Notes: generated by a model from the sequence alone, not told the origin. DNA of 37,691 nucleotides from a virus (IMGVR_UViG_2751185969_000015:1-37691), one strand, 5' to 3'. Numbered from the stretch's first letter, positions 1 to 5,150 are shown. Translations and numbers: made by a program.

Positions 1-702
1 AAACGTTTTATCCTGCGTCCAGGCGTTGTACCACGGTGTATCTGTAATTTTAAATAACTCTCCCTGGATAAAATCTTCAGAAGCATAAAAAAGAGGCTGA
101 CCCGGTATTCTCTCAAATAAAAAACGAGCATTTTTAAATCGACTGACATCTGGAAGAGTTGATACTTTAAAAGTAAGCCCTCGCCCATCTATCTTTTCAC
201 CACCTGTTGCAACAGAAAGTAATTCTGATAGAGCTGATGTATCATCATGAACACCATCACCAATAGCCCCCCAACCTCTTACATCATAACTGTCTCTCCA
301 TCTTGCTATCTGAAGTTTTGGGTATTTATTCGCTCCATCTGGGTCTTCTAATTGCTGCCGTAGTTGATCAGGGTCATACTTCAGCACATTAGGAAAATAG
401 AACTGCTGCGCACCATACGCATCATAAACAGCCATAGAATGGCCTTGCACGGTAACGAATTTGGCAATCTGTCCGTTATATACAGAATATCCAGCAGCGT
501 TAATGATGATTGGTTGCGAAACAGGAACGTGAGAACCGTCTTCATTCTCCACATAAACCTGAATCTGGTTTTCAGGATTTACTGGGTCAGTGTCAATTTT
601 ACCGATATAAATTTTGCCATTGGCTACGGCTTTAAAAGAACGCGCCATAGTGAAGAGTTGCGAAGGCATCGATACGATCACATTGGCTGTAATGTCTGTC
701 AT
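1..702 (-). CDS. Tailspike protein, N-terminal head-binding domain (3' end truncated by window edge)
   Basis: Minus-strand translation from the ATG at 700-702 gives [46 protein letters not shown]..., which I recognise as the conserved head-binding N-terminus of P22/Sf6-family tailspikes. GGAG RBS about 9 nt upstream. The ORF runs in frame to position 1. Confidence 0.9.
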
Positions 703-760: not shown

Positions 761-783
761 AAAAAAACCCAGCCGAAGCTGGG
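761..783 (-). terminator. Rho-independent terminator downstream of ant
   Basis: Perfect hairpin CCCAGC-cgaa-GCTGGG (768-783) followed on the minus strand by a 7-nt U-run (complement of A-run 761-767). Confidence 0.7.
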
Positions 784-802
784 TCGTTGCGTTGGTTATC
801 TG

Positions 803-1705
803 TCAGTAGTTATGTACTGAAGGAGGTAATTCTTTATTCTTAAGTCTCATCCATGCGGAAAGATTCGTTGGTCCGTCTGGCTCATTAATATCAACATCTC
901 GTGTATGGTTGATTAAAACATCTCTCGCCATATCGATAATACGGGAGAACTCATAACCGCAGTCATGACATCTGCCGGAATAGTTCGATTGAATTTGTTT
1001 TAATGCCGGATACAGTTCGCGGAATAATGCCTGTGAACGGTTGGCATAATCCCATAACCATACAAGGCTGTTTGCTTCTTTTGCAGAAAGCTCGTTGGTT
1101 TTCTTCTCTTGTTTGCCGATAAACTCACCTTCAAGCACTACCCTGTGGATGTACTCTACGGCTTGCGGTATCTGAGATGCATCAAGCTCTTCAATACTTT
1201 CCACATTGAAACGCTGATGAATCATTGCATAAGCTTCTGGGTACATTAGATGCTTTTTGCTGACCAGCATATTTACAGCATCACGAAGCGGAGTCCTGTC
1301 ATCAACAGATGTTTTCTTACGTGCATTTTCTGCCTTTCCCTTTGTCCAGTAGTCATGCAGTACAGTAAAGCATTCTTCCTGGTACTGAATCAGTTTATCA
1401 CGGATGTCAGCACGAACTTTCTCAGGGTTGATGCTGAACAGCCATCCATTTAACTTCTTCAGCGGGATGCATAAAAGCTTACGTAACTTGCCATCAGCGG
1501 CAACCATAGAGATATCTCTACAGTTGAATTTGTCCTTCATTTTACGCAACTTAACAGATTGACCAGTCCAGTCGATACCAATGTTTTCCACAATTTGACG
1601 CATCGCTACATAAGTCACTCCGGCAGCCATAGCGGTTAAAATCTGCTGACCATTGAAAGGCACGTAAGAGGTGTTCACTGCTTCTAAAATTGCTATACTA
1701 TTCAT
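803..1705 (-). CDS. ant: Antirepressor Ant (P22 immI type)
   Basis: Translation from the internal ATG (1703-1705) begins [37 protein letters not shown]..., matching P22 Ant as I recall it. GGAG-like RBS upstream. The track ORF start at 1771 is an upstream in-frame extension. Confidence 0.85.
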
Positions 1706-1767
1706 GTTGGTTTTTCTCCACGGATTTACCGACAACCGAAGCCCTGACTGTTCCCGCAGTTGGGGCT

Positions 1768-1989
1768 TCACTGTTTTTGTAAGTCACTGTAGCTATAAAG
1801 CCACTGACCACTCATTTTTGATTTGATTGACTCTACTGAATCACGGCAAGGAATGATTCCGCCTGACATCATTCTGATCTCCGTAAATTCACCACTCCTT
1901 ATCGATTCAATGCCATCAATGTTAACTAAAGATTTACCTCTACCAAGTGCATTCTCATAGCCAATCTCATCAACCTCAATAAACCTCAT
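1768..1989 (-). CDS. Hypothetical 73-aa protein inserted between arc and ant
   Basis: [29 protein letters not shown]...; its ATG overlaps the arc stop (ATGA), suggesting translational coupling. No family recognised. P22 has no gene between arc and ant. Confidence 0.5.
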
Positions 1990-2144
1990 ACCGTTATCCC
2001 CTCTCTCTTCAGGCTGTCCAACACTCGCTTGTAAATCTCAGAGTTAACAGATCGCCCGTTCTCTTCCGCCACCTTACGCACCAAATCCAATACTTCTTTA
2101 GGCCACCGCAAATTGAACTGCGGCATTTTGCTCATTCCTTTCAT
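1986..2144 (-). CDS. arc: Arc repressor (ribbon-helix-helix)
   Basis: Translation from ATG 2142-2144: [52 protein letters not shown], near-identical to P22 Arc as I recall it. Confidence 0.9.
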   Translation of the reverse strand: MKGMSKMPQFNLRWPKEVLDLVRKVAEENGRSVNSEIYKRVLDSLKREGITV

Positions 2145-2159
2145 ATTTACCTCACAATA

Positions 2160-2207
2160 TAGATCCACCGTGGACCTATTGAGAATATAGTAGAGTGCTT
2201 CTATCAT
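2160..2207. promoter_or_regulatory. immI divergent control region with Mnt and Arc operators (Pant/Pmnt)
   Basis: Imperfect palindrome GATCCACcGTGGACC (about 2163-2179) resembles the P22 Mnt operator. ATAGTAGAGTGCTTCTATCAT (2187-2207) matches the P22 Arc operator. Both lie between divergent arc and mnt. Confidence 0.7.
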
Positions 2208-2234
2208 GTCAATACACTAACTTGGGGTGATGGC

Positions 2235-2483
2235 ATGGCTAGAAACGATCCGCACTTTAACTTCCGTATGCCTTTGGAAGTAAGAGAAAAATTGAAATTA
2301 AGAGCAGAGGCTAACGGAAGGTCAATGAACTCTGAGTTATTACAAATCGTTCAGGATGCTCTCTCCAAACCATCACCTGTAAGCGGGTATCGTGATGAAG
2401 AAGAGAGGCTGGCCTCATTAATCTCGGAACGAGTAAAAGAAGTTGCGGCTGATATCCTTAGAAAAGAAAAAACCCGCGATTAA
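2235..2483 (+). CDS. mnt: Mnt repressor
   Basis: MARNDPHFNFRMPLEVREKLKLRAEANGRSMNSELLQIVQDALSKPSP..., closely matching P22 Mnt. Confidence 0.9.
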   Translation: MARNDPHFNFRMPLEVREKLKLRAEANGRSMNSELLQIVQDALSKPSPVSGYRDEEERLASLISERVKEVAADILRKEKTRD

Positions 2484-2497: not shown

Positions 2498-2719
2498 TTA
2501 GTTATCAAAAAGTCCGTACGTTTCTTCTTCTTCAGGTGTAAGGGGAAGAATCTCTACTCTATCTATAGATACCTTTTCAATGTACCCATGAGGTCTACTT
2601 AAAATTAAAGCTCTCTCATGCCACAGAACTCCAAGAATGTGATACCTCCCAGCATCGCCTTTTACCCTGGCTCTTCCTTTGATTCTTGGCGACATAATGC
2701 CATATTTTTTCTTTGCCAT
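2498..2719 (-). CDS. Hypothetical 73-aa basic protein, last gene of the RHH/Bro-N operon
   Basis: ORF MAKKKYGIMSPRIKGRARVKGDAGRYHILGVLWHERALILSRPHGYIEK...; its ATG overlaps the stop of the upstream gene. No family recognised. Confidence 0.5.
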   Translation of the reverse strand: MAKKKYGIMSPRIKGRARVKGDAGRYHILGVLWHERALILSRPHGYIEKVSIDRVEILPLTPEEEETYGLFDN

Positions 2720-3447
2720 TATGCAACATTACTCCCATGAATCAGGTGTTGTAGTGCTTTAACACCTTCCGCATTGTAGCGGAATACTTCCACCTGTTTG
2801 CTGGAATGCGCAGATTTATCCAGGAAGAACTTACCGTACTGCTCAGTTTTGAGGTTGTTTGCGTTAGCAATGCGACCAATCTTGTTGGCCGTTACTCCAA
2901 GCTGCTCTGCAACCTCCCCTGCTGAGTAGTAATGCTCTTCTATTGCTGGAAGAGGTATTGCATTAAAACCAACGATCGGGTTGATTATGCTTGCTGCCGC
3001 AGTCTGCTTTGCTTCCGGCGCAAGATTTGGCATCAAATCGAACAGATTGGTAACAGCTTCAACCGTCATTTTCAATGTTCGCGCCTGGCGATACTCAACA
3101 AGTCCACTCGACGATTTACCGCTTTTAATGTGCGCTTCTTGCATACTTTCAAGTTGGTCTACAAGTGAGCGGCGAACAGCTTTAGATTCACGAGCAGCCA
3201 CTCGAAGGGCTTGCTTAATTGACATAACAACTTTTTCAGAAGTTGTCTTGTTTGATTTTTGAACTACGAAAATTTCGTAGTGCTCACCTTCAAGTTCATC
3301 CTTAATGCGTGCAATAAAGTCGTTATTTCGGACTTCTTTTTCCCCGCACTGTCTACGAGCATGATTGACCATCTCTAACAGGTACTGGCTATCAATGGTT
3401 TTATCCGTGACAACGGATCCGATGTTTGCTACATTCTTAAAAGTCAT
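2719..3447 (-). CDS. Antirepressor-like protein (KilAC / P22-AR-C type C-terminal domain)
   Basis: Start taken at internal ATG 3445-3447 (MTFKNVANIG...) with an AAGGA RBS. C-terminal segment YYSAGEVAEQLGVTANKIGRIANANNLKTEQYGKFFLDKSAHSSKQVEVFRYNAEGV resembles phage antirepressor C-terminal domains. Assignment from motif recall only. Confidence 0.5.
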   Translation of the reverse strand: MTFKNVANIGSVVTDKTIDSQYLLEMVNHARRQCGEKEVRNNDFIARIKDELEGEHYEIFVVQKSNKTTSEKVVMSIKQALRVAARESKAVRRSLVDQLESMQEAHIKSGKSSSGLVEYRQARTLKMTVEAVTNLFDLMPNLAPEAKQTAAASIINPIVGFNAIPLPAIEEHYYSAGEVAEQLGVTANKIGRIANANNLKTEQYGKFFLDKSAHSSKQVEVFRYNAEGVKALQHLIHGSNVA

Positions 3448-3535
3448 TAGGCATTCCTTATGTGGTAGTAAGGGTGTGACATAGGCCGCCAGCAGCACAC
3501 TGGCGGTTTTCTTTTTGCGCAGTCCGGCGCACCAA

Positions 3536-4162
3536 TCAATGAATCCATTCCTCGCCGCGAAGTTTTGCCAGCATTGGCTGAGCGTTCTTTACGACAAAAT
3601 TGTTGGTATCAAGATTCTTCATTTCACGAAGAAGTGATTTCTTGGTTTCTTCTGACATGTAGCGAGTCTCATATGCAATATCGTAAATCCTTCCTGAAAG
3701 CTCAGAACCAATTTGCTTCATTCCTGGGTAGATGTGTTTGCACGTTTGTTGACTCTTCTCCATCCACAATTGTAAGTAGCAGAGATTAACCAGTTCTTCG
3801 TCAGTAAACTGTTTTGCAATCGGTGAGCATTCTGCCTGCCGATCCAAAATATCCAGCACCCAGCGGCGGAACTCTTTGGCTACCGGAGTGCGAGCAAACA
3901 TCGCGATTAGGTGGGCACCGCGTAGTGAGAAAACTCGCACTTTTTTGCGATAATTTCCTGAGGTACTCACTTCGAGTACCTGAGTCATTCCGGCGCTAAA
4001 CTCATCGCTATACTTGTTATAAATCATTGTTACTGCACGACTATTTGCGTATTTAAGTGCAGATGCAATATTAGATGATGTAAACCAAACACCATGCATA
4101 TCACGGGTGGGCACCAACTCAACTCCGTGGAAGTTGTAATCTGATTTTGCTACAATACTCAT
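3536..4162 (-). CDS. Bro-N domain protein (putative antirepressor)
   Basis: Start at ATG 4160-4162 (MSIVAKSDYNFHGVELV...) with an AAGGAAA RBS. Clear Bro-N signature: ...WFTSSNIASALKYAN...RVFSLRGAHLIAMFARTPVAKEFRRWVLDIL. Confidence 0.7.
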   Translation of the reverse strand: MSIVAKSDYNFHGVELVPTRDMHGVWFTSSNIASALKYANSRAVTMIYNKYSDEFSAGMTQVLEVSTSGNYRKKVRVFSLRGAHLIAMFARTPVAKEFRRWVLDILDRQAECSPIAKQFTDEELVNLCYLQLWMEKSQQTCKHIYPGMKQIGSELSGRIYDIAYETRYMSEETKKSLLREMKNLDTNNFVVKNAQPMLAKLRGEEWIH

Positions 4163-4235
4163 GTTAGTTTCCTTGCATACGGTTACTGACATAGAGGCCC
4201 GGTTTGTGTTCGCGCACTGCCGGGCTTCACTATTT

Positions 4236-4409
4236 TTATTGGATGACAACATCGCCCTTTGCCTCAAGTTTCATCAATAACTCCATTCGATAAGCTATCT
4301 CTGCCTGAATTGACCTATGGCATCTTTTTGCTGATTCGCGGATATGTGAATCAACCTTTTCTGTAAAACGAACCTGACGCGGCTTGATGGAAGATATCTT
4401 TTCAGTCAT
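4236..4409 (-). CDS. Small ribbon-helix-helix-like regulator (57 aa); not in the ORF track because it is under 60 aa
   Basis: Hand translation: MTEKISSIKPRQVRFTEKVDSHIREAAKRCHRSINAEIAYRMELLMKLEAKGDVVIQ. Strong AGGAG RBS. Beta-strand then helix pattern typical of Arc/MetJ/CopG-type RHH proteins. First gene of the operon divergent from the S24-like regulator. Confidence 0.5.
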   Translation of the reverse strand: MTEKISSIKPRQVRFTEKVDSHIRESAKRCHRSIQAEIAYRMELLMKLEAKGDVVIQ

Positions 4410-4508: not shown

Positions 4509-5150
4509 ATGAATTTTGACGATCAATTCCCATCAAGAGTATCTCTGGCAAGACAGTCCAGGGGTATGACGCAGGCGCAGTTGTCAAAATTAGCTGGTGT
4601 TGTTCAACGTCAAATAGCTGCATACGAGGGTGGTGAGGCTAAACCACGGCTTCGGGTATTGCAGGCATTAGCCAACGCATTAGGTACTACAGCTGAGTGG
4701 TTAGCTCTAGGTGAAGGTCAGGGTCCGGGAACAAAAAACGTCATGCCTGACGTTCTGGTAAAGCAAATACCAATCCTCAAACTAGATGAAGTTATGCATT
4801 ACCTAAACACAGGTGAACATTCATCGTCTAGATTTCATCCGGCAATATACAATGTTGGTGACTCTGCATTTGCATTGACTATTGAAGGTGAAGCTATGAC
4901 TACAAGTTCAGGTATTAGCTTTCCCAGAGGATCGGTTGTCACGTTCAGCCCTCTAGTAAAAGCTAAAAGCAAAGATTATGTAATAGCATCATTGGATAAA
5001 GAGCAAATATTGAGCTTCAAACAGGTTTACATTGGTGAAATAGAGACAAACCTAGTATCCCTAAACCCAATGTATCCTAATATTCTTGTTAGAAATGAAG
5101 ATGTTAGTATTTTGGCAACCGCAGTTTACCTTGAAATCCCGTTGCTTTGA
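4509..5150 (+). CDS. CI/LexA-like regulator: XRE-family HTH plus S24-peptidase-like domain with Ser to Ala at the nucleophile position
   Basis: N-terminal HTH (GMTQAQLSKLAGVVQRQIAAYEGGEAKP). C-terminal domain aligns with the lambda CI C-terminal domain: AFALTIEGEAMTTSSG vs lambda [16 protein letters not shown], and SFKQV vs TFKKL. The Ser of the G-x-S-M motif is Ala; the catalytic Lys is retained. Confidence 0.75.
   Translation: MNFDDQFPSRVSLARQSRGMTQAQLSKLAGVVQRQIAAYEGGEAKPRLRVLQALANALGTTAEWLALGEGQGPGTKNVMPDVLVKQIPILKLDEVMHYLNTGEHSSSRFHPAIYNVGDSAFALTIEGEAMTTSSGISFPRGSVVTFSPLVKAKSKDYVIASLDKEQILSFKQVYIGEIETNLVSLNPMYPNILVRNEDVSILATAVYLEIPLL

Follow-up and report, generated by a model that had tools for sequence, protein, structure and literature searches.

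The interval between arc and the sar antisense RNA gene in the immI region of P22-like phages is, from comparison across loci, a cassette slot that takes at least six unrelated small open reading frames (ORFs), one at a time. In the stretch of viral DNA analysed here (37,691 nucleotides, hereafter the window), the occupant is orf73, a 73-codon ORF that the same comparison identifies as one of several alleles at a polymorphic cassette site with precise bounds, as opposed to a one-off insertion. The reading we favor, at a probability of roughly 0.6, is that orf73 is a small coding gene in an exchangeable immI cassette, and that its product would be a dispensable, oligomerising, protein-binding accessory factor of lytic infection.

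The immI locus of the window

At its left end, the window carries the immI region of a P22-like (Lederbergvirus) prophage, which reads on the minus strand (Table 1). Like P22, it has mnt, Pmnt/Pant, arc, sar and ant, all in the P22 order and with the tailspike gene downstream; mnt and arc both encode ribbon-helix-helix repressors. A first-pass annotation of the window had described arc and ant as intact and equipped with the expected operators, and we agree: both proteins carry their Pfam domains, the arc operator is that of P22, and the mnt operator is one base off. The P22 mnt operator is the symmetric AGGTCCACGGTGGACCT, and the change in the window gives GGATCT. By eye, the C-terminal half of Mnt also looks different from that of P22 Mnt.

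Unlike P22, the window has a 222-nucleotide ORF, orf73, between arc and the sar terminator, interrupting the abutment of these two elements that is typical of P22-type immI regions. When the arc-ant interval is aligned with P22, the extra DNA falls precisely in the gap from the arc stop to the sar terminator, confirming that the ORF is additional relative to P22. Re-derived coordinates reproduced the reported arrangement of a 73-aa ORF that overlaps the arc stop and ends 62 nucleotides before ant (1706-1767). The arc TGA (1988-1986) and the orf73 ATG (1989-1987) overlap as ATGA. Arc itself also differs from its P22 counterpart, in that its C-terminal codons house the ribosome-binding site of the extra ORF; by alignment, the C-terminus of the 52-aa window protein is different from that of the 53-aa P22 protein (ESFKKEGRIGA). 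One element of the earlier description needs correction, namely that ant follows arc directly in P22, where a 68-nucleotide spacer encoding sar separates the two genes. The 62 nucleotides between orf73 and ant are likewise the sar gene, by Rfam, rather than an empty spacer.

Table 1. Coordinates of immI features and of the adjoining antirepressor-type module in the window
Feature	Position	Strand	Description	Basis
Tailspike gene, 5' part	1-702	-	P22 gp9-like head-binding domain	Translation; synteny with P22, Emek and 611R6
Hairpin 3' of ant	766-785	-	Resembles a terminator; counterpart of the P22 ant terminator	Terminator scan
ant	803-1705	-	300 aa, P22-type antirepressor	Pfam P22_AR_N 146 bits, P22_AR_C 98.5 bits
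sar	1706-1772	+	Antisense RNA gene, full length 1-68	RF00262, 87.3 bits (gathering score 43)
sar terminator	1738-1769	+	Hairpin with 14-bp stem and T-run, tail ACTGTTTTTG; right junction of slot	Terminator scan
orf73	1768-1989	-	73 aa, ATG start	
Left junction of slot	1986-2015	-	Last Arc codons with Shine-Dalgarno GAGGGG, then ATGA overlap (AGCCTGAAGAGAGAGGGGATAACGGTATGA)	
arc	1986-2144	-	52 aa	Pfam Arc 91.7 bits; translation
Promoter/operator region	2156-2212		Between mnt and arc; Pant (-), Pmnt (+)	
mnt operator	~2161-2177		One mismatch to that of P22	Alignment with P22
Pmnt	2179-2207	+	Divergent from Pant	Promoter scan
arc operator	~2187-2207		Same as that of P22	Alignment with P22
Pant	2212-2184	-	TTGACA-17-TATATT	Promoter scan
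mnt	2235-2483	+	82 aa, Arc-family ribbon-helix-helix repressor of Pant	Pfam Arc 95 bits; aligns with P22 mnt
Second module, 73-aa ORF	2498-2719	-	PHROG 4977; ATG overlaps upstream stop as TAATG	
Second module, anti-repressor	2719-3447	-	PHROG 1726	
Second module, antirepressor	3536-4162	-	Bro-N/P22_AR_C	
Second module, small Arc-like ORF	4236-4409	-		Judged by eye

orf73 is conserved as a protein

The orf73 product, known here from its sequence as a predicted protein, is small (8.3 kDa) and acidic (pI 5.0, calculated as 4.99; net charge -2.5 at pH 7), and belongs to PHROG 11805, a family of unknown function (179 bits). The family is very shallow. A word-indexed search gave seven near-identical clusters, and an exhaustive HMMER search of 1.8 billion representatives added a sole diverged ortholog (P0008, 84 aa, 57% identity); two further matches from that search were rejected as repeat-protein artefacts. 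Searching with P0008 as the query returned P0008 alone, and a scan of one genome per species found no relatives. Neither NCBIfam nor PADLOC contained a match to orf73, and a sequence search of the PDB gave chance-level matches only.

The diverged ortholog lies on a 1.1-kb contig (locus L019) at the same place as orf73, after arc with a GTGA overlap and with the sar hairpin next, so that the start/stop overlap is kept despite the change of start codon from ATG to GTG. Between the two genes, a test on this one diverged pair gave pS 0.61, a synonymous divergence that is saturating, against pN 0.21, for a dN/dS of 0.20 (Fisher p = 3.6e-6). They are separated by an indel of 33 nucleotides, or 11 codons, which is in frame, and the remaining five frames are closed by stops. 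All 34 close copies that we read out are intact, with no disrupted orf73 among them; their 24 variable sites comprise 10 synonymous changes and 14 mostly conservative ones, a weak synonymous excess that is not significant alone (p = 0.11). Because of the dN/dS of 0.20, the in-frame indel and the intact state of every close copy, we count orf73 as a real protein-coding gene that appears to be under purifying selection. The first-pass annotation had left room for the interval being a non-coding leader conserved only at the nucleotide level; the low dN/dS against the L019 ortholog points instead to constraint on the protein.

Other kinds of gene were considered for the same stretch. A structured non-coding RNA was ruled out by unremarkable RNA folding (z = -1.85) together with the protein-type substitution pattern, and an antisense gene was rejected on the three to eight stops found in every reverse frame of both orthologs.

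orf73 is already in public records as a hypothetical protein, and has been since the submission of Salmonella phage vB_SemP_Emek, whose 'orf73' product is 100% identical to that of the window. It is also carried by Escherichia phage vB_EcoP-611R6, by 15 IMG/VR contigs, by Salmonella assemblies and by 51 of 5,426 complete E. coli genomes, where it is always single and always chromosomal and where all 51 matches are full length and annotated as coding sequences. At the same place it is missing from P22, from loci L039 and L040 and from most relatives. The GC content of orf73 is 38.7%, versus 47.2% for arc. In one variant, P0002, the stop codon has been lost and the frame runs through the sar terminator, giving 90 aa. 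We found no description of orf73 in the literature on phage Emek, on the arc-ant interval or on phage FlbD-like proteins.

A cassette slot with functional junctions

The place occupied by orf73 is sharply defined on both sides. In occupied loci, the junction alignment shows Arc ending in DSLKREG(I/V)(T/A)V, encoded by AGCCTGAAGMGWGAGGGGRTRRCGGYRTGA, and this left junction is common to loci with orf73, orf84, orf74, orf57, orf67, orf80 and orf89. It is missing from the empty-slot loci (P22, L039 and L040), which have other Arc C-termini. On the right, slot ORFs end in A-rich codons and TGA, the last two bases of which open the sar stem GAAGCCCCAACTGC.

Scanning IMG/VR with the left-junction pattern retrieved 67 loci, in which the stop of every intact cassette ORF lies at offset 0 from the sar stem. 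The cassettes are orf67 (22 loci; Cys-rich, 11 intact and 11 cut to 10 codons), orf57 (20 loci; no family match beyond PHROG 17642), orf73 (14 loci), orf74 (7 loci; Cys-rich with a CxxC...CxxC arrangement), orf80 (3 loci; FlbD-like) and orf89 (1 locus; a hydrophobic N-terminal segment and a helical C-terminal part, as read from the sequence). Slot ORFs other than orf73, one of 57 aa and a Cys-rich one of 74 aa, were first met through partial matches in E. coli genomes; among the 5,426 complete genomes, orf57 occurs in 93 and orf74 in 23. A cross-tabulation shows free reassortment of cassettes with arc and ant types: orf73 accompanies at least three or four kinds of arc and at least five of ant, and these arc and ant types also occur with other cassettes.

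The truncated orf67 copies (for example, in L044) run for just 10 codons (MSKECCFLRH*), and the sar hairpin follows 172 nucleotides further on; they may represent the decay of a dispensable cassette. At the right junction, the ORF that abuts the sar terminator ends in AAA AGT TGA or AAA CAG TGA (window 1766-1780; L003 and L036 to L040). These A-rich ends supply the T-run of sar on the other strand, and in P22 the same in-frame AGT TGA comes two codons beyond the arc TAA, so that the right junction extends two to three codons into the upstream ORF.

Short conserved stretches flanking exchangeable modules are also known as the 'boundary sequences' of lambdoid and P22-like phages, as in the annotations of HK620 and CUS-3. 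As with those, the junctions described here could serve homologous recombination; they differ in being functional elements, namely the end of Arc, which carries a ribosome-binding site, and the terminator of sar.

The CUS-3 record (CP000711.1 6505-6986; L110 1577-2058) labels the whole mnt-ant interval 'bsq2; boundary sequence' and treats it as non-coding. That interval holds three elements: an arc-like ORF, intact and with DSLKREGVMV as its C-terminus; orf67, the Cys-rich cassette of 67 aa, which starts in an ATGA overlap; and sar at full length (84.6 bits). To judge from these ORFs, the non-coding reading of the interval is incorrect. The content of the interval also contradicts a published remark that CUS-3 apparently lacks arc (PMC2629481).

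Expression of orf73 and control of Ant

The geometry of the left junction is that of translational coupling. All 27 loci first examined have a four-nucleotide arc/orf73 overlap with GAGGGG eight nucleotides upstream and, where the contig includes ant, a distance of 62 to 63 nucleotides from orf73 to ant. The overlap is ATGA, or GTGA in L019 and in orf57 loci, and GAGGGG is found in all loci examined. The ORF had been described as translationally coupled to arc, and with the RTGA overlap and a Shine-Dalgarno sequence inside arc at every locus examined it is indeed arranged for coupling.

A consensus scan, which weak signals may escape, found no promoter- or terminator-like site within arc or orf73 (1768-2144), and an internal promoter for orf73 was rejected on that scan. 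The only hairpin within 1768-2144 is the sar terminator, on the opposite strand. The same scan missed the weak sar promoter, whose region lies in the first ant codons (window 1671-1699, plus strand); its -35 element is one base off that of P22 (GTGTTA to GTGTTC), and 611R6 shares the base of the window at that position. Since orf73 lacks a consensus promoter or terminator of its own, it should be expressed from Pant transcripts whenever these are made, in line with the original proposal that the ORF would be on whenever immI is derepressed. In P22, Arc shuts off Pant shortly after infection and Mnt keeps it off in lysogens.

A second earlier proposal, that the ORF modifies Ant expression by coupling, fares poorly. 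In P22, sar blocks translation of ant. In the window, sar spans the ant leader and ribosome-binding site and overlaps orf73 by the last five nucleotides, and the sar terminator hairpin begins within the orf73 stop codon, the TGA giving the first two stem bases on the other strand. The distance from the orf73 stop to the ant ATG (62 nucleotides) is about that from arc to ant in P22 (68 nucleotides), the entire ant leader and sar target are kept, and ant has its own Shine-Dalgarno sequence. Both the stop-to-hairpin and the stop-to-ant geometry of orf73 are those of arc in empty-slot phages. Above the Rfam gathering score, sar follows the slot ORF in 10 further cassette-bearing loci with differing ant types, and it is found in the empty-slot P22 locus as well.

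Classical morons bring along a promoter and a terminator and are expressed in the prophage state. The suggestion that orf73 is a moron stands as far as acquisition is concerned: the gene is absent from P22 and most relatives, low in GC and associated with several arc and ant types, as expected of an acquired accessory gene. It does not stand in the classical sense, since the consensus scan gave orf73 no promoter or terminator of its own and the gene is predicted to be silent in the lysogen.

Genes in flux around the slot

The region between gene 16 and the tailspike gene has been described as an 'ant moron' in rapid flux, with ten types in sixteen genomes and unrelated genes to which no function is assigned (Villafane et al. 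2008, PMC2629481). With its unassigned function and a GC content below that of its neighbors, orf73 is a gene of this kind; it differs from the ant moron so described, and from morons in general, in lying inside the arc-ant operon, coupled by geometry, instead of forming an independent transcription unit. It also sits in a precisely bounded sub-slot with conserved junctions, which the passages of PMC2629481 consulted do not mention.

In the window, a second antirepressor-type module adjoins immI (2498-4409, minus strand), between mnt and gene 16 (Table 1). It is closest to phage JEP4, in which the annotations are KilA and Rha. At 4509-5150 (plus strand), the JEP4 match lists 'repressor protein C2' among the features of the region, and a repressor-like gene may thus sit within the ant region. 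In prophages with orf73 or orf57 (L020, L023, L026, L028, L036, L038 and L042), the mnt-adjacent DNA carries varied accessory genes, including a HicA toxin with a DUF1902 partner, a PIN-domain protein, a ClpP-like protease subunit and a YafO-family toxin. These genes accord with the idea that conflict genes are dumped in this region.

Predicted fold of the orf73 product

The best model from a first AlphaFold2 run had a pLDDT of 86.5 (the other four, 42 to 67) and placed strands at residues 2-8 and 19-23, a short turn, strands at 27-32, 36-40 and 45-48, and a helix at 52-60. Adding the diverged ortholog to the alignment in a second run gave a pLDDT of 52 with the secondary structure unchanged, so that one of the ten models over both runs was confident. 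The order of elements is that reported for crystal structures of SwrD/FlbD, which show two strands, a 3-10 turn, three strands and a helix (PMC13232269). SwrD/FlbD proteins form hexameric rings by strand exchange between subunits, and are like RemA/LytTR domains but without the DNA-binding elements (PMC13232269). They are small flagellar swarming factors of Bacillota, Actinomycetota and spirochetes, and Escherichia and Salmonella lack SwrD (PMC13232269). A Foldseek search of BFVD with the orf73 model returned many viral proteins of 60 to 70 aa named 'Flagellar and swarming motility protein' (TM 0.6 to 0.8), and a Foldseek search of the PDB returned nothing significant.

At the sequence level, Pfam FlbD (PF06289) matched all six orf73 members scanned, the diverged ortholog included, at 12.7 to 16.4 bits (E 0.007 to 0.1) and in a constant register; these matches are below the cut-off (14.6 bits for orf73 versus a gathering threshold of 24.7). 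PHROG 8458 ('flagellar protein') matched with E 0.09. Against 36 FlbD proteins, which were retrieved with a consensus sequence serving as bait alone, orf73 by itself gave a weak hhalign match (probability 9.7%, P 0.003). The residues P26, D27 and T28, invariant in the 36 proteins, align with E-F-T in orf73, in which only the Thr is kept. The cassette protein orf80 is closer, with an hhalign probability of 92.8% (E 4e-7) against the same alignment and 21.5 bits against Pfam FlbD, and it aligns with the orf73 family over its whole length, filling the loop that is filled by the longer ortholog. A combined orf73/orf80 profile reached 89% probability against FlbD, driven largely by orf80.

The predictions converge weakly on a placement of orf73 in the SwrD/FlbD/RemA-like small beta fold, and we think it likely that the protein adopts a fold of the SwrD/FlbD type. 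Shared with that family are small size, the predicted order of elements, the weak same-register sequence match in all orf73 members, and acidity (median pI of the SwrD/FlbD family, 5.6). In contrast, orf73 has an extra C-terminal segment of 13 residues and is encoded in a phage immI operon, whereas SwrD is encoded in the flagellar (fla-che) operon. With a score under the cut-off, a P-D-T motif that is not preserved and no flagellar genes around it, orf73 falls outside PF06289 proper.

Proposed role and alternatives

Most likely, orf73 encodes a dispensable accessory protein that is made with Arc and is not a regulator of Ant. From P22 biology, ribosomes finishing Arc would reinitiate to make the orf73 product, which should accompany Arc during the early burst of Pant transcription that follows infection. 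Late transcripts pass through the ant region toward the tailspike gene (PMC2629481), and the product would be made again from these transcripts through immI. In a lysogen, where Mnt represses Pant, orf73 would be silent. As sar would pair with the ant leader and only the last five nucleotides of orf73, Ant synthesis would be blocked and that of orf73 would not. The product would take the SwrD/FlbD/RemA-type fold, which forms strand-exchange rings in solved relatives, and would be used, to judge from its context, in lytic conflict between phage and host or between phages. It would probably stand outside the Arc/Mnt/sar/Ant circuit itself: an accessory is likelier than a circuit part, because fully functional immI regions exist with nothing in the slot and because unrelated proteins fill it elsewhere with no fidelity to Arc or Ant.

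A broader proposal, which we put forward tentatively, treats the arc-sar interval as a dedicated site for plug-in expression, through which phages trade small effectors against hosts or rival prophages. Any small ORF placed between the two functional junctions would then be made in step with Arc, at both early and late stages of infection, and be silent in the lysogen; the occupants would include SwrD-like ring proteins (orf73 and orf80), zinc-ribbon proteins (orf67 and orf74), a membrane protein (orf89) and orf57, and orf73 would act as a ring-forming inhibitor of a host or prophage target.

The relation of the predicted fold to RemA raises the question of whether orf73 could be a third DNA-binding immunity regulator, RemA/LytTR-like, tuning for example Pant/Pmnt or late read-through to the tailspike gene. 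We consider this unlikely. RemA is a biofilm activator that forms an octameric, DNA-wrapping ring and is related to LytTR. Its DNA binding needs Arg50, Arg51 and Arg53 on a helical insertion between strands 3 and 4 (PMC8481266, PMC13232269). In the orf73 model, the corresponding strands (27-32 and 36-40) are joined by a turn of three residues, with no counterpart of the arginine-rich insertion, and an acidic protein of pI 5.0 and net charge -2.5 would have no basic surface. RemA ranks 44th in the Foldseek results for the model (E 3.3), and SwrD, which is closer by sequence, is without DNA-binding elements (PMC13232269). That the slot is empty in P22 and has unrelated occupants elsewhere would also be unexpected for a component of the circuit. 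Given the acidity of orf73 and its SwrD-like features, protein binding, possibly as a ring, is favored over DNA binding.

Co-transcription and probable co-translation with Arc, directly upstream of the sar target, would suit a protein that modulates Ant, either at the level of synthesis, by translation across the sar target, or as a partner of Ant or Arc that alters their activity. Ribosomes terminating on orf73 would melt the base of the hairpin formed by the sense RNA of the sar terminator. However, arc in L039 also ends at offset 0 from the stem, and arc in P22 ends four nucleotides before it; with equal arc geometry in empty-slot phages, any ORF there would have the same effect and none would be specific to orf73. 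A specific partnership is disfavored by the variety of arc types (at least three or four) and ant types (at least five) that occur with orf73, each of which is also found with other cassettes. We therefore regard a modulator of Ant as improbable.

It is very improbable that the ORF is non-functional, whether as a frame open by chance in a non-coding leader or a recombination 'boundary sequence', or as a remnant in decay, as the CUS-3 annotation of the equivalent interval, the truncation of half of the IMG/VR orf67 cassettes to 10 codons and the weak synonymous excess among close copies might suggest, given the dN/dS of 0.20 at pS 0.61, the in-frame indel, the start overlap kept through an ATG to GTG change, the 34 of 34 undisrupted copies, the 51 of 51 full-length annotated matches in E. 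coli, and a predicted fold that is compact and resembles a known family.

Conclusions

What is added here is the precise slot and its functional junctions, an inventory of the cassettes that alternate in it, and a tentative fold. That accessory genes are exchanged as a mosaic in this part of P22-like phage genomes has been on record since 2008, and the slot findings establish no new principle. For the textbook immI circuit of P22, they mean that in many natural relatives the arc-ant operon holds a third, variable gene, inserted at a precise site that leaves the control elements of Arc, sar and Ant intact. orf73 is present in about 1% of complete E. coli genomes; for the three cassettes counted, taken together, the figure is about 3%. 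The predicted fold suggests that SwrD/FlbD-like small proteins reach into enterobacterial phages. As a small, well-bounded set, the slot occupants are candidate early-expressed phage effectors, and the slot itself offers a natural expression site for cassette swapping.
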